Sequence record: NC_135729.1
Reading direction: 5' to 3' (one strand)
Length of the DNA stretch: 64,000 nucleotides
From: a phage
Shown here: piece after piece, positions 1 to 48,640 of the stretch
How the letters are laid out: each line of letters opens with the position of its first letter
Numbering within the stretch: position 1 is the stretch's first letter
Made by a program: the position numbers and the translations under genes
The notes under the pieces: model-generated
Databases searched by the model: none
What the model was told of the DNA's origin: nothing
Seen by the model: only the letters and a program-made list of their open reading frames with translations

Positions 1-181
1 AAATGAGAACGGTTATCATTATCATTTAAAAATTTATGCAAAAAATCCTTGCTTTCTTTGTCCTGTGTGATACTATAATAACAAGCCGGGGCAACAGGGG
101 CCGGGAGACAATCACCGGGCCTGCCCGTTATTCTGCAAACGAGAATGATTATCATTCAAAATTCTAAATGAGAACTCCTCG
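1..181. repeat. direct repeats with Fur-box-like cores in non-coding leader
   Basis: AAATGAGAAC at 1-10 and 166-175; GAGAACGGTTATCATTATC (5-23) and GAGAATGATTATCATTCAA (141-159) match the 19-bp Fur-box consensus GATAATGATAATCATTATC at about 15/19 and 14/19 positions (counted by eye); no ORF >=60 aa in 1-760. Confidence 0.4.
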
Positions 182-283
182 CATTTAATAAATTTAATTA
201 GCACGCTAATTACCCTCCGTAACAATTTCCTATAAAACAGTATCCCATAAAATATTCCCGTATAGAAATTTTAAAAATCCATT

Positions 284-449
284 TCTGAAAACGAAAAATC
301 GATTTCGTCCCCAAAAATTTTAGGCCAAGAGCCGGAGCGATTTCCAGAAAATCCGATTCAGAAAACGAAAAACAGATCGAGTACTGAGAAATTTATCGAG
401 AAAAATTTTCAGAAAATTCAATCTTTGAAACGAAAAACAGATCGAGTAC
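284..449. repeat. imperfect ~65-bp tandem repeats (iteron-like)
   Basis: identical 20-mer ACGAAAAACAGATCGAGTAC at 365-384 and 430-449; degenerate third copy CTGAAAACGAAAAATCGATTTCG at 286-308; flanking CAGAAAAT motifs also repeat. Confidence 0.6.
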
Positions 450-627
450 CTGGAAAGCTGCACCGCAACTTCAAGATAGTGGTTGGATTATTGCTATAAA
501 AGGTCAAGGGTAAGTGGAGGAAGTTCTAGTAGCGAGATGTAAGCATGTGCGGGAAATCTATAATGGTGGTCTGGAATATGGTGCAAACGGTAGGATGAGT
601 GATTCAGCTTGTCGCGCCTACTCTGAA

Positions 628-721
628 AAATCCATTTTAGTTTTCGATCCATTTTCTGATTTTCTAAGGATTTTAAAATATCCTGGCAGGTAAAATATCA
701 AAAGGAGGAAATCCATTTTAG
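628..721. repeat. direct repeats AAATCCATTTTAG
   Basis: AAATCCATTTTAG at 628-640 and 709-721; related GATCCATTTTCTG at 646-658 and AAAATCCATTTCTG near 274-287. Confidence 0.5.
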
Positions 722-760
722 AAATCCTCCTGATCTCTGGCAACCTGATAACTTAAAATA

Positions 761-1093
761 TCAGGCTCCCAGTGTGTTCTTTCCTTTGTACAACCGTAAG
801 GGTATAGTTTTTGTAACAGTCCATCTCCCCAGCCCTTCCCAGTTCCAGTTGTAGGCATGGTACCCGGTTACGCATGCACTGCTAGAGTGGTCATAGGCAT
901 AAGAGAACACTATACGCACCAAATGGAACCAGTCTTTCCACGGTTGTGGTCCGTAAGCTTTTCTCCAACACCGACACAAACTAAATGTCTCAAGAATAGG
1001 CAGGATAACAAATCCATACACCGCCACCAGAATAGCCAGCGCAATGATTGTCAGGAATACATACCCTGCAGTTGAAACGATGATCTCTGTCAT
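761..1093 (-). CDS. hypothetical membrane protein
   Basis: 110-aa ORF; hydrophobic stretch YVFLTIIALAILVAVYGFVILPIL suggests one transmembrane helix; same strand as neighbours. Confidence 0.35.
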   Translation of the reverse strand: MTEIIVSTAGYVFLTIIALAILVAVYGFVILPILETFSLCRCWRKAYGPQPWKDWFHLVRIVFSYAYDHSSSACVTGYHAYNWNWEGLGRWTVTKTIPLRLYKGKNTLGA

Positions 1094-1293
1094 TTGTCGT
1101 CCCCTTTCTTACGGATATAGATGTGAGAACCTGCCTGTATATAAATTTCTCGACCATCTTCTGCGAAGATGTGGAATACACGGTCACCTTCGTACTCAAT
1201 ACGAGATATCTTCATAATGGTCTTTCCACCTGGGATACGGATCTCGTCCCCCACAGCGATGTTCCATGCAGATTTAAGCTTAAACATCTGCAC
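1090..1293 (-). CDS. hypothetical protein
   Basis: 67-aa ORF, 4-nt overlap with downstream gene. Confidence 0.3.
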   Translation of the reverse strand: MQMFKLKSAWNIAVGDEIRIPGGKTIMKISRIEYEGDRVFHIFAEDGREIYIQAGSHIYIRKKGDDK

Positions 1294-1480
1294 CCTCCTT
1301 TGGGAACTTGAACTCTGGCATAGCCATATACGCTACAACAGGGTTGTGATCAAAGTAGAACTGACCGTTAATTATCCCTGTTTTGTCCACATAGTTACCA
1401 GATCCTGCAAGAACAACCTCGCAAGCTCCGAAATCTACATTGCCATCCTCATCAGCCATGGCTACGGATATACTTTCCAA
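1280..1480 (-). CDS. hypothetical protein
   Basis: 66-aa ORF in the minus-strand gene train; competes with plus-strand ORF 1169-1495. Confidence 0.25.
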   Translation of the reverse strand: MESISVAMADEDGNVDFGACEVVLAGSGNYVDKTGIINGQFYFDHNPVVAYMAMPEFKFPKEGADV

Positions 1481-1546
1481 GAGGCATGTTTTTAACGCCG
1501 TCTACAAATGTCCACCCTTTGCTCATACTTTATCTCCTGCGCTTTC

Positions 1547-1879
1547 TTAAGGTAACCAGTAAACAATCTCGCCTTTCAGCTTCATGTCGTTTCCAACATA
1601 AATTTCCCAGCCATCCATCTTAGCAACTGTAGGCCCAAAGTCATCCGCACCCCTTACCTCTTTCCAGGCTCCGTAGTCAGGTTGCCAGATATAGAATCCA
1701 CCTTCTTTGTCCCATGCTCCGTACACTACGTTTAACAGGTTTCCCATTGCAACAATGGTGGGCCGTGGGAATAATACATCTACAGATGCGCCACAATTTC
1801 GAGTATCTTTTAAGTTGCAATCCCAAAAGATGTCTGCCAGTGTGGCGGCGATAGCTTTACGTCTTTCCAATGTTACCAT
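1547..1879 (-). CDS. hypothetical protein
   Basis: 110-aa ORF, co-oriented with neighbours. Confidence 0.4.
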   Translation of the reverse strand: MVTLERRKAIAATLADIFWDCNLKDTRNCGASVDVLFPRPTIVAMGNLLNVVYGAWDKEGGFYIWQPDYGAWKEVRGADDFGPTVAKMDGWEIYVGNDMKLKGEIVYWLP

Positions 1880-1889
1880 GGCACGATAC

Positions 1890-2081
1890 TCACTTGTTGT
1901 TAATAAGGTCTAAAACTTTCTGTCTTACTTTGTCAAGGTCTGTTGATTCAAAAACTGTGCGATATCCCCAACTTTGCCCATAAGAGTGACTGCAATCCCC
2001 GTAGCACCATTGCTCAATTTGATAGTATTCAAGGAACGGGTGCTGTCTAACTATGATACCATCCCGGTTAAAAATTACCAT
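1890..2081 (-). CDS. hypothetical protein
   Basis: 63-aa ORF. Confidence 0.3.
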   Translation of the reverse strand: MVIFNRDGIIVRQHPFLEYYQIEQWCYGDCSHSYGQSWGYRTVFESTDLDKVRQKVLDLINNK

Positions 2082-2144
2082 AATACATCACTCTCTGTTA
2101 GTTTATGCATATATTATACACTGCAGTTTTCAGATGTCAATCTT

Positions 2145-2396
2145 TTACAGGTTACTCCAGTATAATCGGCATTTACATTTTGGGCAATGAGGTTCTTTTA
2201 TGTAATAACCATCAGTCTTTGGAACACTTTTTGGTGCAGTTTTAAGATTGTACCTGGTAAAACATCGGAAGCAGGTCACCTCTCCAACCTGTTGATCGTT
2301 GATCCACTCACCAGAGTAAAGCTCTTTCTTGTTTCTCATAATTCTCTCCCAAATCCTCTGCAATCTTATACCAAAATCTCCAGCCAGAAAGCACAC
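2145..2396 (-). CDS. hypothetical protein, possible Zn-ribbon
   Basis: CFRCF ... CPKCKC cysteine pairs; true start probably internal (MRNKKELY). Confidence 0.35.
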   Translation of the reverse strand: MCFLAGDFGIRLQRIWERIMRNKKELYSGEWINDQQVGEVTCFRCFTRYNLKTAPKSVPKTDGYYIKEPHCPKCKCRLYWSNL

Positions 2397-2590
2397 GGGA
2401 ACACTTTGAGGATTGAATCTTTACTTGGCTCGGAAGTTCTTTTTCCGTATGGTAGGTAGAAATACCCTCCTGCAGATTCGAATATAGCTCCTTCGGTTGT
2501 ATCTACCACAGCAAGAATTAAGATTCTAGTCTCCACAGTGCTCTCCTCTCTTAGTTGTTGTGGAGACTATATCACCTCAGAAGATGGTCG

Positions 2591-3049
2591 TCAACACTTT
2601 TTGTACTCTACTACAACCACATCAATATCTGTGGTTGCAAGATTAATTACATCTTCTACATGTTCCCACTTTAGACCGCCAATACCGCATCCAATTTTAG
2701 GAATGTAGAACGGCAATGACACACCTTTGAATACCTCGTTGACTCGCTCAAAACCTTTCATGATTGAGAAGTATTCAGCATTGGGCCCTGGGTAGAACTG
2801 GGTATACAGGTTGATTCCATATACGACCCTGTTCTTGGCAAAATGCTCCCAACAAGAAAACATACCCAGCTTGTCCAGATTACCATAGGCAGTCTCTTTG
2901 TCGGCTGCCAGTGCTTGAGGGAACTCACGGGCAATATCTTTCGCTATGCCTGCACCCATTGTATGAAAGCAGTTACAACCGTGGATCAGGTGACCAGCAC
3001 CGCTCTTAAAAAGGGAGATTAAATCTCCCGCTACAGTATCAATAATCAC
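2591..3049 (-). CDS. macro-domain protein, TARG1/OARD1-like (putative ADP-ribosyl hydrolase)
   Basis: GDLISLF...HLIHGCNCFHTMGAGIAKDIAREFP and LPFYIPKIGCGIGGLKWEHVEDVI align by eye with the TARG1 signatures GDLFSCP...CRMGAGIA...FKKKFG and LSMPRIGCGLDRLQWENV; length 152 aa fits a single macro fold. Confidence 0.7.
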   Translation of the reverse strand: MIIDTVAGDLISLFKSGAGHLIHGCNCFHTMGAGIAKDIAREFPQALAADKETAYGNLDKLGMFSCWEHFAKNRVVYGINLYTQFYPGPNAEYFSIMKGFERVNEVFKGVSLPFYIPKIGCGIGGLKWEHVEDVINLATTDIDVVVVEYKKC

Positions 3050-3464
3050 GGTATGTCAGCTCCTCTTCCGCAATTTCAAAAAACTCATCCCAACCTTGTG
3101 GCATATTTGAGTTGCCGAAGTGGCTTTCATAGTAAAGGTTCTCACCACTTGGGAGATAGAAATCTGTTACCTCGTAGAATCCACAATCGTCGCACTCGCC
3201 TTCTTCAAACTTGGCCTCAACCTTAATACCTAGGAAGGTGAAAAGTTTATGGATATCTTCAGTTTCGAACTCCCAGCAGATATTGTTTTCCGCATCGGTG
3301 TAGAACTGGATCAGCAGACCATTATCCAGTTTACCAAAATATTCTGTGAAGTAACTACCTTCCCAGAAATCTTTATGACAAATAATATCCATGCGCTTGC
3401 CCATGATAAAGGTGTGGGCGTTTTGGGCATCGTCACGAATCAGTTTTGGCATTTCATAGATCAT
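3039..3464 (-). CDS. hypothetical protein
   Basis: 141-aa ORF overlapping the macro-domain gene start by 11 nt (likely co-translated). Confidence 0.45.
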   Translation of the reverse strand: MIYEMPKLIRDDAQNAHTFIMGKRMDIICHKDFWEGSYFTEYFGKLDNGLLIQFYTDAENNICWEFETEDIHKLFTFLGIKVEAKFEEGECDDCGFYEVTDFYLPSGENLYYESHFGNSNMPQGWDEFFEIAEEELTYRDY

Positions 3465-3532
3465 CTTAGTTCTCCGGGTTCAACAGGTGGTGGTGCTACA
3501 GGAAGATCATAAAACATAGCTATCACAGTCTC

Positions 3533-3730
3533 TTACACAGGAATTGCTTCAAACAGGCCGTTATCTATACCGTCCTTCAGATAGAGATTATACTCTATGT
3601 CGGTATCTGTATAAAGGGCAGCATCCAGCATTCTATCTGTGAGTCCATCCATTGGGTGGAGAAACCACCACCCACGCCAGTCAAAGTAACAGCCTGGTGC
3701 ATCTTCTCTTACACGGATTCGATAAATCAT
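3533..3730 (-). CDS. hypothetical protein
   Basis: 65-aa ORF. Confidence 0.3.
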   Translation of the reverse strand: MIYRIRVREDAPGCYFDWRGWWFLHPMDGLTDRMLDAALYTDTDIEYNLYLKDGIDNGLFEAIPV

Positions 3731-3826
3731 GGGCAGTGGCCTCCTGTTAGTTATACATCCCAGTTTTCTTCGTTCATCGCGTCCTCCCGTTATATGAAGT
3801 TATAATTGCACACCTTTCAACCTGTG

Positions 3827-4243
3827 TCAACAGAAAACTTCAACAAATTCTTCCACAGTTTTAATGTCGTGGGAAAAAGGTTTACGGCTATAACGGGCAA
3901 TAGCACTATCAACCACCGCCCGGTACTCAAGATCTTCAGAGTATTTCATGAAGCATTGTAGTGTTTCTGGACAGATAGCCAGATAGCTCCACCACCCTTC
4001 ATCAGATTGATAGTCAAATCCCATACTCTCCAACCATGAAGCATATACTCCAGCACCCTCAAGCCAGTGAGTATTTTCATCCAGAAACTTGTTAACAGAC
4101 ATGTGAGCTTCTAAGCACTTGTCCAGCTCTTTTCCGTTAACCAGCCACGCACTGACCGTGGCGCATCCAAGGTCTACAGATTGAGTTGACAGGTTGTATT
4201 GGTCATAGTTCTCAGGTTTAACAATGATATCTTCTAATGTCAT
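3827..4243 (-). CDS. hypothetical protein
   Basis: 138-aa ORF. Confidence 0.45.
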   Translation of the reverse strand: MTLEDIIVKPENYDQYNLSTQSVDLGCATVSAWLVNGKELDKCLEAHMSVNKFLDENTHWLEGAGVYASWLESMGFDYQSDEGWWSYLAICPETLQCFMKYSEDLEYRAVVDSAIARYSRKPFSHDIKTVEEFVEVFC

Positions 4244-4260
4244 TTTTCAGATCTCCTTAT

Positions 4261-4290
4261 ACAAAAATGCCCCACCCTTTCGGGCAGGGC
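4261..4290 (-). terminator. rho-independent terminator
   Basis: minus-strand hairpin GCCCTGCCCGAAAGGGTGGGGC (plus 4269-4290) followed by ATTTTTGT; a second copy of the same hairpin is at 15885-15906. Confidence 0.6.
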
Positions 4291-4305
4291 TATGTTAACT
4301 AGGTG

Positions 4306-4929
4306 CTAAAAGTATTCGTAGAGGTATCCATCGGGGGCTGGAATTTTTTCATGAATGTAGTAATCAACACATATTCCGGTTTCTCTTCTACAAGAATTGT
4401 GGGATACCCATTCTTTAAGAACGTTTCCATTCATGTCCAGCCTCCTTACATTTTTACACCGTCTACCGCTGGTGCTTCTATGCAACAGAATATCCTCCGT
4501 CTGCTTGTCTTTATTTTCTCCCCAGGTCGTTAAACGGATATTATCAAAAGAGTACCCTTTGAAATCATCTATCCTGTCACAAGAAGGCTTTTTCCTTTTG
4601 TCGTATCCGCTGGCTACCCACTGGTCATACAACTCTTTGTAACCGTTCAGGTATAGCCACTCCTTAAACTCTTTTTTGGTGTAAGTCGGAGGAGGGTGAC
4701 CTCTTTGCTTGCTGTTGCACTTTTGAGCCTTGTACAACACGCGTATTACACCTTTTTCTGAAGAGTCGTGGGAAAACTGGTCAGCCTCCCTGCTGGCCTT
4801 CTTACAACACTCTTTGCACTTATTAAGATGACCGTCAGACATCTTTGGGTGTTTGTAGAACTCGGAGAGGTTTTTCACCTCTCCGCACTTGATGCACCTC
4901 TTACAATGCGTGGATTCTACTTTTGCCAT
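4306..4929 (-). CDS. HNH homing endonuclease (free-standing)
   Basis: zinc-finger-like [10 protein letters not shown]...CKECCK followed by [28 protein letters not shown] (His-Me finger, DRID-type); the track ORF starts at 5016 but an internal Met ([12 protein letters not shown]) at 4929 is more plausible. Confidence 0.65.
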
Positions 4930-6172
4930 ATTGCAAACCCACTGGAGCGAAAGGTATGTCATCACAGAAGTCATACTGTGCTGGATTCTGATCCATTGGG
5001 TCATCTTCCTCATCATTTACAGGAGGAGCGTCTACAGTGTTTTGCTGTGGAGCTGCTTCCTGTTTGGCAGCCTGAGGTTCTTGATGGTCAGTTGACCCAG
5101 CACCGTTCTTGATCCAATCGTACAACGGCTCAGCCAGATTAGTCAAGACATCTTTTGCTTCTGCAGTAATTGCCGCTGCAAAATCATCAACTTTCGTTTT
5201 CTTGTCAATACGGCGACAAGCGTTCAACACCGCATTACCGACACTGGCACCTACTTCATCTTCAGTTCGGTTGGTGGCTTGAGCATACTCTTTCTTAAGC
5301 TCAATGGTGACTACGTGCAGTGTTTTAGCCACGCCCAGTGGGTCGTCTACCTTAAACCCGCGATCCAGGATGATTTGCAACGCATTGATGCTATGCCCCG
5401 TTTCCACACCGATAGGGTCGTAAGAGGATTTACGCTTGCCACCAGAGCCTTGAGTGCCGTTCTCTGCCTTAGGGGGATAGGCCTTGAAACCACTGATAAT
5501 GTTTCCGGTGTCTTTGTCAACAATGGCTGCAACACGACCACCTACCACCAGGTCTTTAAGCTGCTCATCAGTTACAACCATAGCACCTTCGCCAATCTTG
5601 TGGTCATTAACAGTAACCACGTTGCCAACAATCTGAGTCACATCACCATAGATGCGTAAAACGTCCTGATTGGCATTCTGCTGAGGTTTCTGCTTCTGGC
5701 CTTGTGATTGTGCACCTTGTTGCTGTTTTTGCTGCTGAGTCGCTGCTGGAGCCTCTCCTGCACCCAGCTTAACCATCTTAGCCAGTGAGCCCTTGTAATA
5801 GGTCTTACCGTTATGCTCGTTTGCCTTCAAAGGGATATTTACGATCCATCCTGGCGTTACGGTTTCCCACTTGTCATCAATCTTAACAGAGACAGAGTCT
5901 TGATGACCTGGTTTAAGCAGCTTATCACCCATGCTGATCCAGACTTCTTCACCACCTTGAAGCAGGTTATCAGAGGAATCCAGTTCAGAAATCAGTAAAG
6001 AGATGGTGTGGCTGGATTCAATTTTCTTACCTTGCCACACAGTGGTTTTAATACCTGTTGTAGGATCAGCACCTTTGATAGGCTTGATGCTAACACGTTT
6101 AATCATGCCGTGAGCCAGTAAAACAGTTTCACGCGGATTCATTGGGTTAGCGAATTGTTGAATAACGCTCAT
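4901..6172 (-). CDS. protein with SSB-type acidic C-terminal motif (putative ssDNA-binding or SSB-interactome protein)
   Basis: Q-rich linker ([22 protein letters not shown]) and near-C-terminal YDFCDDIPF resembling the bacterial SSB tail MDFDDDIPF, but followed by a 15-aa extension; the N-terminal fold was not recognised. Confidence 0.4.
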
Positions 6173-6537
6173 TATTTGTCTCCTTGTTCTTCGTTAGTGT
6201 TTGCCGTGTGTGCAAACCCTGCTTGAATTAATTTGTCCTGAACTTGAGCCAACAGGCCCATTGCAAAACTTGTGGTCCCAGAGAGGGCCATCAGCATATC
6301 TCGTTGTTGAGCTACCCAACCTAAGGCATAGTCCAAACGACGATATTTTTCTTCTTCACGCAGAGCCTGAAATAATTGTTCAGCCTCCGGTTGTTGTGTG
6401 AGCTCCTGAAGTCTTCCCATGAAAGAAGAAAGCACTAGCAGAAGAGACACTTGATCTTTACTTAACCCTAAGAAAAATTCTTGAGGTTGTTCTTGCTCGT
6501 TCATCGCAACCGACGCTTGATCGTTCATTTGTTCCAT
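6172..6537 (-). CDS. hypothetical protein
   Basis: 121-aa ORF, GGAGA RBS upstream of the ATG. Confidence 0.4.
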   Translation of the reverse strand: MEQMNDQASVAMNEQEQPQEFFLGLSKDQVSLLLVLSSFMGRLQELTQQPEAEQLFQALREEEKYRRLDYALGWVAQQRDMLMALSGTTSFAMGLLAQVQDKLIQAGFAHTANTNEEQGDK

Positions 6538-6581
6538 TATGGAATCTCCGATTTTATTTGAACAACATAGAAGGAGACACT

Positions 6582-6610
6582 ATTTTAGCATCCCCTTCTG
6601 TAAATTACAA
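6582..6610 (-). promoter_or_regulatory. sigma70-like promoter
   Basis: minus strand TTGTAA - 17 nt - TAAAAT in the 83-nt gap upstream of 6172-6537. Confidence 0.35.
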
Positions 6611-6620
6611 TAGGTATTTG

Positions 6621-6866
6621 TTAGCCAATCACTTCGAAAGTTCCCCAATTCCCGTCCAGCAGGCAGGTGATCGGATCCCCATCGTCGTCAAAGATTTCAA
6701 AGTTTTCAGCATCCAGGATGTGGCCCTCGAACACAATACTTTCGTCGCCACCACCAGAGATAACAGCGTATTCCTTACCTTGAGTCAAGTTTTGACACCC
6801 TTTGCCACCAAAACCTACTTCCACACAACGTACTTTCTGTCCTGCGCGAGCAACTACTTCAGCCAT
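6621..6866 (-). CDS. hypothetical protein
   Basis: 81-aa ORF. Confidence 0.35.
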   Translation of the reverse strand: MAEVVARAGQKVRCVEVGFGGKGCQNLTQGKEYAVISGGGDESIVFEGHILDAENFEIFDDDGDPITCLLDGNWGTFEVIG

Positions 6867-6883
6867 CTTAAGGTCTCCTGATA

Positions 6884-7204
6884 TTAATCGTCAAGTTCAA
6901 AATAGATTTTAACAGCTTCATCAAAGATTGGAATCCCGATGTTGTTGATAAGCTGCCAAACTACCATATCTTTACCTGGGTCTGGGAGAATGTCAACCTT
7001 TCTCCATGCGCTGTATATCCAGTTCGGACCACCTTCTGCACTAACTGGCAGATTTTCACCAGCCTCCTGCAGATACTTATACAGCAAAAGATACTCTGGA
7101 TACTCTAGAATACTGTCCTCTGCAGTGTATAGCAGTTCACGGTATACTTTTAAGAACCCTGCGGGGGTGATGTTTTCAGTCTTCATTTGCTGCCTCTCCT
7201 GCAT
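6884..7204 (-). CDS. hypothetical protein
   Basis: 106-aa ORF. Confidence 0.4.
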   Translation of the reverse strand: MQERQQMKTENITPAGFLKVYRELLYTAEDSILEYPEYLLLYKYLQEAGENLPVSAEGGPNWIYSAWRKVDILPDPGKDMVVWQLINNIGIPIFDEAVKIYFELDD

Positions 7205-7565
7205 TCATCAGATCTGCCATAGCGTCACCAACGAAGAGAACAACCACATCGTTGACAGCGTCAGTATCATCTTTGTTGACGTTGCTGAATTTAGGACACA
7301 CAGCAATAATCATATAGACACCGTTACCAACCTGAACTGTCCGCGTGGTGCACATCATGGCTGTATTTGTACCCTCTTTGAAAGCGAATCCTTGAAGACG
7401 CTCCTCCAAAGTGTTACCGGTAGATTTCAGAAGCGCCAGCTCGTCCAAGGCATAGATGATATCTCCGGAAGTTAGTGTTGCCTTACCATCAGACACCATA
7501 ATCACTCCATCAGCACCGTCAAGCTTAGAGGCTTCAAAGATATCGATATCCCAAATATTTTTCAT
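7176..7565 (-). CDS. hypothetical protein
   Basis: 129-aa ORF. Confidence 0.4.
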   Translation of the reverse strand: MKNIWDIDIFEASKLDGADGVIMVSDGKATLTSGDIIYALDELALLKSTGNTLEERLQGFAFKEGTNTAMMCTTRTVQVGNGVYMIIAVCPKFSNVNKDDTDAVNDVVVLFVGDAMADLMNAGEAANED

Positions 7566-7882
7566 TACGCTTCCTCGTCTAAGGAGTTGAAGATTTCACC
7601 GAAGTATTCTAAGACTTCTAGCTCCCGTGTGGTGCAGAAAACACAGTCACCGTTGTCATCCTCGATAACGGCCTCTTTACCCAGCACATCTACTTCAAGT
7701 TTATCGTTCAACAGGACGGCCCCTGTGTAAACTTTGTCATCTGTGCAGTCCCGAAAAGCAGAGTCCTTCTCTAGGTAGTCTGGCTTAACCTTGGCTTTAA
7801 TTCGTTGATATTGTTTGGTCATTGCTGTGGTCCCCTTTCGTTTTGATAGGACCATTGTATTAGGTCCTATCGCTGTTGTCAA
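7565..7882 (-). CDS. hypothetical small Cys-containing protein (paralog of 7886-8140)
   Basis: shares AFRDCT and DDNGDCVFCTTRE motifs with the adjacent ORF. Confidence 0.4.
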   Translation of the reverse strand: MTTAIGPNTMVLSKRKGTTAMTKQYQRIKAKVKPDYLEKDSAFRDCTDDKVYTGAVLLNDKLEVDVLGKEAVIEDDNGDCVFCTTRELEVLEYFGEIFNSLDEEA

Positions 7883-7885
7883 GTA

Positions 7886-8140
7886 TTAATGTTCAGTTTT
7901 TACAAAAACTACTTCGTTAACAGTGCACCAGACAGAGTCTCCTTCATCATCTTTAAAGGTAAGGCACTGTGCTGAGTTTTCCAGCTCATCAAGCTCTTCT
8001 TGTGATAGAGGGGCCCCTTCTTCCAAAAGGGCTTTTACCAAAGGGTTCTCACAAAACTCTGCTTCATAAGTAGCGCCAAGTGTGCAATCTTTAAAAGCTC
8101 GGTCGTTTGCAACGCATTCTGGTTTCAACATGATTTTCAT
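7886..8140 (-). CDS. hypothetical small Cys-containing protein (paralog of 7565-7882)
   Basis: AFKDCT and DDEGDSVWCTVNE motifs. Confidence 0.4.
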   Translation of the reverse strand: MKIMLKPECVANDRAFKDCTLGATYEAEFCENPLVKALLEEGAPLSQEELDELENSAQCLTFKDDEGDSVWCTVNEVVFVKTEH

Positions 8141-46452: not shown

Positions 46453-47138
46453 TAACCCTCCTGTCTAGTTGCGTTTACTGTAATACTTTCACAATAAATG
46501 GTTGTGGTGTCCCAATCAGGTCTTACGTCAGGAACATATAGCAAAGTAGCCAGCCCACCAACTCCGAATTGGATTTCTTCCCACACTGATCCGAAGCCAA
46601 GAGCTGTAGAGTCCCCTTCAAAACCAAAAGCTTGCCCTTGCGATTCTGTAAGACGCAAATGACAAGGTAATGGTAGCATATCTAAGATCTGATCGATAGA
46701 CTGCAATATGTCAAAGCAAGTTTTTCTAATATTTATGTCAAACCTGAAGTTGTCTCCTTTCCACGTATCGAAATTGTCTCTTCCGAACAATTGTCGCAAG
46801 GTGGAGATGACATCTTCTCGAGTCCCGCCCCTTGATGCTGCAGCCTGCTGAATAATTAGTGTGGCACGAAAATCAGCATCTGAAAGTCCATTCCTAAGAA
46901 TACCAAGCTGATTACCAACTTCGTCAAGGTATCTTCCGCTGGCATTGTTAAGCAATCTTCCTTCAGCCAAACCTACCAGCATCTTATCAACATCCTCCAA
47001 CCTTTTAAGGTACACGGTTAAGAATGTGACTAAATTAACCTTCTCAGCCAGAAAATCTCCAGGCAGGTAGTCAAGACCTCCCTGAACAAAATCTGGCAGA
47101 GTGTGGATGTGGTTAACATCCGACTTAATCTCTGCCAT
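46452..47138 (-). CDS. baseplate/tail-associated protein (positional)
   Basis: 228 aa, directly downstream of the baseplate J-like gene with 1-nt overlap. Confidence 0.3.
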   Translation of the reverse strand: MAEIKSDVNHIHTLPDFVQGGLDYLPGDFLAEKVNLVTFLTVYLKRLEDVDKMLVGLAEGRLLNNASGRYLDEVGNQLGILRNGLSDADFRATLIIQQAAASRGGTREDVISTLRQLFGRDNFDTWKGDNFRFDINIRKTCFDILQSIDQILDMLPLPCHLRLTESQGQAFGFEGDSTALGFGSVWEEIQFGVGGLATLLYVPDVRPDWDTTTIYCESITVNATRQEG

Positions 47139-47149
47139 ATCTCGCCGCC

Positions 47150-48640
47150 TTAAATAGTTTGTTGGAAAGTTATATTACTTTCGTCGAGGTCAAACACCTC
47201 GGTCATGTTCGCAACAATATCGTTTGTAGTGTAAGCTTCATCAGAAGCTCCTACTGGTTTAACTTGAATTACCAGTCTATTAAATCTGCCTATTGACACA
47301 GCAGCAGATGCAGCACCGACCAATTGGATATTGTACAACGTATCTGCAACATCCAGTCCGTTAACAACCTGTAAAAGAGCCTCTACAATGGCATCTTTTT
47401 CGGTTGTGGAAAGCGCAGCACCGGAATAGGTAATTCTTACATCTAGGCGGTAGGTATTCGCCTTGGAGTAATAAATTCTTTCAGTTTGACCGTCAGATGT
47501 AGTGACATCGTAGAAAATATTACCATAAGTCCTGTTCGTACAGGCTATAGTTTGGTAAAGTGCTTGGCAAATGTCCTCCGTTGCACCACCAAACACAACC
47601 ACTTGGAACTTGTAAGGAGGTATACCTTTAGCATCAGTTTTATCAGTGTTGTTGGAGAACACTCTCACTTTCTCAACACCTTTCACCTCGCTTACAGCGC
47701 TAAGGATTGCAGGACGGGTAGCCTTCGATGTTAACTGTTTTGTGCTGGAAGCTCTTAAGCGATACTCGGAATCTTTCTCAACATCCCTGCCCTCGTTGAA
47801 TCTTTCTCGGTTGGTAAGCTTGATAAATCCGCTGGGAGTAGGTGACATTGTTGTCACGGTCTCTGCCTCTCTTGACAGCTCACCAGCCTCGTTAGCTATA
47901 ACATCTAGGGTGATAGTTCTTTCCCCTACAATCGGGGATACTCTGAAATCTACCCTACTATTAAGTCCAACTTGATCAAGATTCGAATTGTACCCTATCC
48001 ACAACGTTCCTGTCAACATATCGATCTGAATCAAATCGTCGTTCAACAGGGTTGTATTATCGACAATGAACTGCTTAATCTCTCCGTAAAAGCTTGGCAG
48101 ATCAGAAGAGTCCAGAGACTTATCTGTTAAAACCAGACTTTTTGTTTTGATACTTCCATCTGTCTGGTTGGTGATTTGAAAGTTGTATTTACCAATCCTT
48201 AGGTCTGGAGCATTTATTCTGTGGGCAATAAGATTCCCTGCCACCTGCACATCATTGCTAAGAACAAAGTTGCCACTATCCAGCGTATAAGTTTTGGAAT
48301 CATAAATCATATTGTACGGCACAGTTGTGTTGATTGTCAACTGGCAGGTACCTGATGATTTAGAACGGCCTCTTCGGTAAATACCCTGTCTTCCAAGAAG
48401 CTCATCCAGGTAAATACCTTCTGCCCCATACAGCGTCTGTGATGCGTATACAGATGCTGCCATAAGAATAAGTTGATACTCTCGCTCGTTGAAGATAGTG
48501 GTCAGCTTATCTGCAACGGAGTTACTCTGTACGTTGAAGTTTTCGCCAAAAGCACGGATCAGGCTTTGCTTAGTTTCAACGATTAGGTCATTTAGGGTTG
48601 GTATAACGAAACCAGCCTCTGTCAATCCATACTTAGCCAC
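47150..48640 (-). CDS. baseplate J-like (wedge) protein
   Basis: N-terminal FVIPTLNDLIVETKQSLIRAFG and YLDELLGRQGIYRRGRSKSSG resemble the Baseplate_J family signature (P.L.ELI ... LD.L..G..R....G). Confidence 0.45.
   Translation of the reverse strand: MAKYGLTEAGFVIPTLNDLIVETKQSLIRAFGENFNVQSNSVADKLTTIFNEREYQLILMAASVYASQTLYGAEGIYLDELLGRQGIYRRGRSKSSGTCQLTINTTVPYNMIYDSKTYTLDSGNFVLSNDVQVAGNLIAHRINAPDLRIGKYNFQITNQTDGSIKTKSLVLTDKSLDSSDLPSFYGEIKQFIVDNTTLLNDDLIQIDMLTGTLWIGYNSNLDQVGLNSRVDFRVSPIVGERTITLDVIANEAGELSREAETVTTMSPTPSGFIKLTNRERFNEGRDVEKDSEYRLRASSTKQLTSKATRPAILSAVSEVKGVEKVRVFSNNTDKTDAKGIPPYKFQVVVFGGATEDICQALYQTIACTNRTYGNIFYDVTTSDGQTERIYYSKANTYRLDVRITYSGAALSTTEKDAIVEALLQVVNGLDVADTLYNIQLVGAASAAVSIGRFNRLVIQVKPVGASDEAYTTNDIVANMTEVFDLDESNITFQQTI

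Follow-up and report, generated by a model that had tools for sequence, protein, structure and literature searches.

The closest described counterpart of the gene considered here is tk.4 of phage T4. According to the passages of a November 2025 preprint that deal with it (bioRxiv 10.1101/2025.11.20.689424), tk.4 was the only significant match of a transposon library on a DarTG2 host, and its clean deletion makes T4 sensitive to DarTG2; the gene was renamed adfM, its product being the anti-DarT factor Macrodomain (AdfM). The protection given by tk.4/adfM explains why T4 lacking adfA and adfN remains DarTG2-resistant; on K-12, tk.4 is dispensable for T4. A 2026 paper named a second phage macrodomain, PhiKZ gp104, AdfM as well, and in vitro this protein strips DNA of its DarT2 marks, and the phage requires it against DarTG2 (PMC13309987). 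Among cellular proteins, SCO6735 of Streptomyces coelicolor, which has no lysine at the catalytic position, efficiently clears DNA of thymidine-linked ADP-ribose and gives Streptomyces protection against DarT (PMC9411070). Here we analyse a macrodomain gene of an rV5-like Vequintavirus, a phage of Escherichia coli, in a 64-kb window (the whole stretch of DNA analysed, 64,000 nucleotides of record NC_135729.1), where the locus is ~99.7% identical to that of phage MiataMamis. The gene (2591..3049, minus strand, stop codon included; GTG start) encodes 152 amino acids and is the orthologue of rV5 gp204 and of T4 tk.4/adfM. We suggest that its product is probably an anti-DarTG2 factor, which would remove ADP-ribose from thymidine in DNA; by homology with the T4 protein this seems to us the best explanation.

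The class of the protein is well supported. Its sequence matches the Pfam Macro family PF01661 (25.9 bits against a gathering score of 22, E 1e-5), phrog_335 (E 1.4e-59), and the macrodomain section of the DarG model in PADLOC (E 1.4e-13, covering profile positions 9-143 of 329 only), and a profile built from 58 homologues finds BT1257, SCO6735, TARG1, M. tuberculosis DarG, and Poa1p at E 1e-15 to 1e-11. The AlphaFold model (predicted local distance difference test, pLDDT, 94.4; predicted template modelling score, pTM, 0.89) has the three-layer alpha/beta/alpha macro fold, and Foldseek ranks TARG1, Poa1p, and DarG at the top. The nearest neighbours by profile and structure are therefore TARG1, DarG, SCO6735/BT1257, and Poa1p, not the MacroD, viral, or PARG types. 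Since profiles, a confident model, and the structural ranking agree, the predicted assignment to the TARG1/DarG-type (TARG1-like, ALC1-like) macrodomains can be regarded as secure. An earlier note, made from the DNA letters alone, had claimed a macro domain of this type with both halves of its signature, and had named placement in a non-macro fold as the outcome that would speak against it; Pfam, AlphaFold, and Foldseek all returned the macro fold, and every quoted motif is present in the 152-residue translation. Placement within the class was made by residue signatures and loop lengths rather than by ranking of E-values, as BT1257, SCO6735, TARG1, and DarG lie within two orders of magnitude of each other. 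The protein is not a DarG in the strict sense, because it has no C-terminal DarT-binding domain and no darT neighbour: it scores 47.3 bits with the NCBIfam antitoxin_DarG equivalog, below the cutoff of 250, and no darT was found beside the gene when the ten flanking open reading frames (ORFs) were matched to families. DarG (DarG2; PDB 5M3I, 5M31, 7OMU), in contrast, has its own DarT-binding domain and an adjoining darT, as well as a catalytic lysine (FPTK) where glutamine is found here.

T4 Tk.4 and the vequintavirus protein are collinear over their full length (39% identity over 153 columns, E 1e-43). Both the window and a complete relative genome have just one copy of the gene, which is the reciprocal best match to Tk.4 (reciprocal tblastn); the rV5 RefSeq record, too, names it tk.4. 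By this evidence it is the vequintavirus orthologue of tk.4/adfM. Both proteins are of similar size (155 residues in T4, 152 here), and both have the motifs HGCNCFHTMGxG, NLYTQF, and IGxGIG, including Asn26 and Gln84; in both cases a stand-alone macrodomain of an E. coli myovirus is encoded amid small non-essential genes. T4, however, belongs to the Straboviridae and has vs and tk.3 as neighbours of tk.4, whereas in this member of the Vequintavirinae the neighbour is an ORF for an acidic protein; the anti-DarTG2 phenotype described in the preprint passages is established for T4 alone. At the search thresholds used, homologues of the macrodomain occur in 2741 phage records of many genera. The N-terminus aligns residue by residue with Tk.4 and forms the first beta-strand of the confident model, so that GTG is, on sequence and model, the right start. 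In the GenBank record of MiataMamis (PP925834.1; L005:46880-47338) the gene is started at an internal ATG (46880..47248), and the annotated product would thus be without the first active-site loop; the full GTG-started ORF is intact there and encodes an identical protein.

The active-site residues set the Tk.4 family apart from TARG1 and DarG. All lie in minus-strand motifs. The loop-1 motif, H23-GCNCFHTMGAGIA-36 (2942..2983), holds Asn26 (codon 2974..2972), which corresponds to SCO6735 Asn27 and PhiKZ AdfM Asn23 in an alignment also with BT1257, DarG, and PhiKZ gp104. The motif N80-L-Y-T-Q84 (2798..2812) ends in Gln84 (codon 2800..2798), aligned with TARG1 Lys84, T. aquaticus DarG Lys80, and SCO6735 Gln85, its YTQ standing opposite the PTK of FPTK in M. 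tuberculosis DarG and PhiKZ gp104. The glycine-rich diphosphate-binding loop, G120-C-G-I-G-G125 (2675..2692), places Gly124 at the position of TARG1 Asp125; where human TARG1 (OARD1; PDB 4J5S) has the Lys84/Asp125 dyad, the phage protein has Gln84 and Gly124. Counted over 118 sequences of the Tk.4 family, Asn26 is invariant (118/118) and His23, Gly120, and Gly122 are each kept in 117; position 84 is Gln in 117, Arg in one, and Lys in none, and position 124 is solely Gly or Ala. Neither Lys nor Asp is thus found at the dyad positions among the 118 sequences. The earlier note had taken absence of the conserved catalytic Lys/Asp as grounds to reject its idea; the residues are indeed absent, yet the idea survives, given that Tk.4 and SCO6735 share the glutamine. 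This conservation, together with the same NLYTQF in T4 Tk.4, indicates that glutamine at the lysine position is a property of the whole family rather than the mark of a decayed copy. In SCO6735, Gln85 at this position is locked by Asn27, and the Q85A variant is inactive, the N27S variant nearly so (PMC9411070). Because SCO6735 is active with this pair of residues, the missing lysine points, by analogy, to a water-mediated mechanism of the SCO6735 type and not to an inactive protein. SCO6735 (PDB 5E3B) and Bacteroides BT1257 (2FG1/2AFC) share with the phage protein both the glutamine and the conserved asparagine; they differ in being cellular proteins of ~22-27% identity to it, and in a longer mobile loop with Lys89/Lys94 that the phage family lacks.

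A plausible course of events can be outlined from these likenesses. The DarT2 toxin of a DarTG2 host would ADP-ribosylate thymidine in single-stranded phage DNA and block its replication; the phage macrodomain would bind the ADP-ribose moiety via two glycine-rich loops and hydrolyse the thymine-ribose bond, restoring replicable DNA. Catalysis would resemble that of SCO6735, the Asn26-held Gln84 positioning the distal ribose for water-mediated attack, with neither the TARG1 dyad nor the DarG lysine. The fold and class, the orthology to Tk.4, and the conservation of the Asn, Gln, and Gly residues are direct observations on the vequintavirus protein. DarTG occurs in E. coli (PMC7003065), and other Vequintavirinae carry an anti-DarTG1 NADAR. 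That the gene could neutralise DarTG, as had been proposed for it, is now supported mainly because the T4 orthologue Tk.4/AdfM has since been reported to act in that way, by transposon screen and clean knock-out in the preprint passages. By extension, the vequintavirus protein would have the same substrate and role and would be produced early enough to act. An anti-DarTG role of such phage macrodomains is already published in outline, the vequintavirus member being new. The basic picture is unchanged; what appears worth keeping is the SCO6735-type Gln active site, the two lineages named AdfM, and the acidic neighbour without known fold. Given that rV5-like phages are frequent candidates when pathogenic E. 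coli is to be controlled, a probable counter-defence against DarTG2 in them would help to predict host range and to interpret resistance.

Several points weigh against this proposal. Identity to Tk.4 is no more than 39%, and the phage family is without the five-residue-longer mobile loop of SCO6735 (Lys89/Lys94), the gap falling directly after the glutamine; this lysine-bearing loop was proposed as the reason for the high DNA activity of SCO6735 (PMC9411070). For T4 itself there is a preprint with genetic evidence only, in which the enzymatic step is likewise inferred; its passages on Tk.4 set the protein beside M. tuberculosis DarG and do not mention the Gln84/Asn26 point, and, as they describe it, the transposon library of Bas54, a member of the Vequintavirinae, was not challenged with DarTG2 (bioRxiv 10.1101/2025.11.20.689424). 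Our literature search gave no data on whether DarTG2 restricts vequintaviruses. Finally, the class is promiscuous in vitro, acting on Glu/Asp-linked protein ADP-ribose, O-acetyl-ADP-ribose, uracil-linked ADP-ribose on RNA, and ADP-ribose-1''-phosphate, so that the physiological substrate cannot be fixed from sequence.

This breadth of substrates leaves room for a broad-spectrum eraser, whose main target would be other host ADP-ribosylation, base-linked on RNA or Glu/Asp-linked on protein, placed by other toxin or defence ADP-ribosyltransferases. Uracil-linked ADP-ribose on RNA is likewise removed by TARG1, DarG, and SCO6735, the Glu/Asp-linked form on protein is a substrate of SCO6735 and TARG1, and a spread over 2741 phage records and many host genera is wider than expected for one defence system. 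Yet, in the preprint passages, DarTG2 is the only condition reported so far to make T4 tk.4 important, and among E. coli defences we identified none that modifies RNA or protein in a way that this class could reverse; the adenine modification of RNA by CmdT is described as irreversible. Overall, a broad eraser appears rather unlikely. A housekeeping function, as ADP-ribose-1''-phosphate phosphatase or O-acetyl-ADP-ribose deacetylase, dealing for example with a Sir2 by-product or with soluble ADP-ribose-derived immune signals, is suggested by database labels (tk.4 "phosphatase" in the rV5 RefSeq record since deposition, "macro domain protein" or "Poa1p-like" in others) and by a gene of the Sir2 family at another place in the genome. 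The label "phosphatase", however, derives from the old domain name A1pp, not from an assay, and the Sir2 gene lies ~84 kb off in another gene block. To our knowledge T4 has no Sir2, and we know of no tRNA-splicing route in E. coli that yields ADP-ribose-1''-phosphate. T4 keeps Tk.4 nonetheless and, in the preprint passages, needs it against DarTG2. Yeast Poa1p (6LFQ), by contrast with the phage protein, is a dedicated ADP-ribose-1''-phosphate phosphatase of tRNA splicing; of its residues mutated in PDB 6LFS and 6LFT, His23 is kept here and Thr30 stands at the position of Ser30, if the PDB chain is offset by a three-residue tag, and His23, being common to SCO6735 as well, does not discriminate between the two types. 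We consider a housekeeping function unlikely. In MiataMamis the Sir2-family gene, annotated "NAD-dependent deacetylase" (L007:31550-32311), lies beside an RNA ligase and a nucleotide pyrophosphohydrolase; it would represent a second NAD/ADP-ribose-related function in vequintaviruses, which could interact with the macrodomain.

The protein might also act without catalysis, as a direct DarT2-binding inhibitor or as a trap for a molecule that contains ADP-ribose. There are precedents: in vitro, DarT is inhibited through interaction even by catalytically dead forms of SCO6735, DarG, and TARG1, the effect being strongest with SCO6735 (PMC9411070), and AdfB of ICP1 neutralises DarT by binding alone. 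An active enzyme would instead lead one to expect what is seen, namely that 117-118 of the 118 family members retain Asn26, Gln84, His23, and the glycine loops, and the protein is without the DarT-binding C-terminal domain of DarG; such an action is, in our opinion, very improbable. As for reversal or tuning of host-protein ADP-ribosylation carried out by the phage itself, which the earlier note had put forward as its second option, T4 does have Alt, ModA, and ModB, all ADP-ribosyltransferases, besides Tk.4. In MiataMamis, however, a close relative with a complete genome, no ADP-ribosyltransferase, of the Alt/Mod type or other, is annotated, a negative that refers to annotation only and not to a sensitive search of every ORF, many genes there being of unknown function; a phage-encoded partner enzyme was therefore not retained. 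The Alt/Mod enzymes, moreover, modify arginine, and we know of no cleavage of arginine-linked ADP-ribose by this macrodomain class. This last option thus seems extremely improbable.

The name AdfM deserves a comment, as it was given independently to the Gln-type Tk.4 of T4 and to the Lys-type gp104 of PhiKZ, each with ~22% identity to the relatives of the other. PhiKZ gp104 resembles the vequintavirus protein in being a phage-encoded, stand-alone macrodomain of the same class (22% identity over 127 columns, E 8e-5); it differs in keeping the DarG-type FPTK lysine and in being imported into the phage nucleus of a chimallivirus. From these comparisons PhiKZ AdfM and T4/rV5 Tk.4 are separate lineages that share one name. 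Whether phages have recruited anti-DarT2 macrodomains at least two times, with one catalytic solution based on Lys in PhiKZ AdfM and another based on Gln in T4/rV5 Tk.4, is to us a matter of roughly even chances.

The ORF upstream of the macrodomain gene (3039..3464, minus strand; ATG start), a homologue of rV5 gp205, encodes an acidic protein of 141 residues (net charge -21, pI 4.2) with no known fold and a conserved C-terminal core, EGECDDCG..HFGN..W.EFF. The two ORFs overlap by 11 nucleotides, GTGATTATTGA (3039..3049, minus strand), so that the macrodomain gene starts before the preceding ORF has reached its stop codon, and a Shine-Dalgarno-like GAGGAG, as read from the sequence, stands 10 nucleotides before the GTG (3060..3065, minus strand). 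This junction, overlap and GAGGAG included, is also present in MiataMamis (99.7% over the locus), rV5 (96.3%), and I29 (87%), and would allow translational coupling in vequintaviruses. Homologues of the acidic ORF were found, at the search thresholds used, in 176 phage records, only vequintaviruses and RB49/Phi1-type phages. In the latter, homologues of the acidic ORF and of the macrodomain gene are far apart, and in Phi1 the acidic-ORF homologue adjoins dam. This separation, and the 2741 macrodomain records against 176, argue that the two genes are not a conserved pair. Of the co-translation claimed for them, then, the overlap proved real and conserved, and a shared function is not indicated. 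One may still imagine a two-part anti-DarT module, in which the acidic protein would bind or decoy DarT2 or some other defence protein directed at DNA, and the marks would be erased by the Gln-type macrodomain. If true, a coupled acidic protein and macrodomain would rebuild in trans the two activities that DarG unites in a single chain; we regard this as quite improbable. A seven-fold match of the acidic ORF to P0132, a 3189-residue eukaryotic cysteine-rich protein with VWD/C8/TIL domains, was treated as compositional. In another phage, a 142-residue protein (P0129) joins an N-terminus like that of the endonuclease VII/HNH-like ORF at 4306..5016 to the C-terminal module of the acidic ORF (3039..3200), a fusion that suggests rearrangement around a mobile endonuclease gene.

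A natural variant affects both ORFs. The 10-nucleotide direct repeat CCAGTTCTAC occurs on the minus strand at 3309..3300, in the acidic ORF, and at 2801..2792, in the macrodomain ORF, and a related, near-genome-length contig of 135.5 kb has an in-frame deletion of 508 nucleotides between the two CCAGTTCTAC copies. Its product (P0017, 121 residues) fuses the acidic ORF to the C-terminal half of the macrodomain, residues 1-85 of which, including Asn26, are lost. The macrodomain gene can thus be lost in nature, as expected of a conditionally useful counter-defence.

The gene is part of a long minus-strand block of small ORFs without assigned function, downstream of the replication genes. The nearest upstream promoter-like sequence outside both ORFs, a consensus match only, is a sigma-70-like site, TTGACA-17-AATTAT with TG (3802..3830, minus strand), a candidate promoter for a 65-residue ORF, the acidic ORF, and the macrodomain gene. 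A strong terminator-like hairpin, likewise a consensus match only (4269..4290, minus strand; 9-bp stem with 7 G-C pairs, and a T-run), marks the probable end of the preceding transcription unit. Sigma-70-like sites are somewhat more frequent than in shuffled sequence (23 against 15.4 +/- 4.1), and for this reason a single one is weak evidence. A perfect consensus, TTGACA-16-TATAAT (2113..2140, minus strand), lies 450 nucleotides downstream of the macrodomain gene and corresponds to the region of promoter P205 in the rV5 RefSeq annotation. These promoter-like sites and the hairpin at 4269..4290 fit an early region, and the early setting attributed to the gene is plausible on that account. Within the macrodomain ORF itself, codons 8-14 contain a terminator-like hairpin, GGGAGATTTAATCTCCC followed by TTTTT (3013..3029, minus strand), and the record of phage Murica has a terminator annotated under the macrodomain gene; we did not retain the hairpin as a real terminator, the number of such sites equalling the shuffle expectation (8 against 8.0).

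Elsewhere around the locus, the matches of the ten flanking ORFs are limited to an endonuclease VII-like protein, phage families without assigned function, and a zinc-binding domain, the last being encoded two genes downstream of the macrodomain by an 83-residue ORF (2145..2396, minus strand; Pfam "Phage zinc binding domain" PF23903, E 1.6e-22). When positions 1..8000 of the window were compared with phage records, 124 matches of 80-99% identity were obtained, nearly all to rV5-like Vequintavirus of E. coli. Sixteen records in the series MG065644-MG065690 are labelled "Campylobacter phage", with host C. jejuni; over this segment they are ~95% identical to the E. coli rV5-like phages, and their host labels look doubtful on that account.
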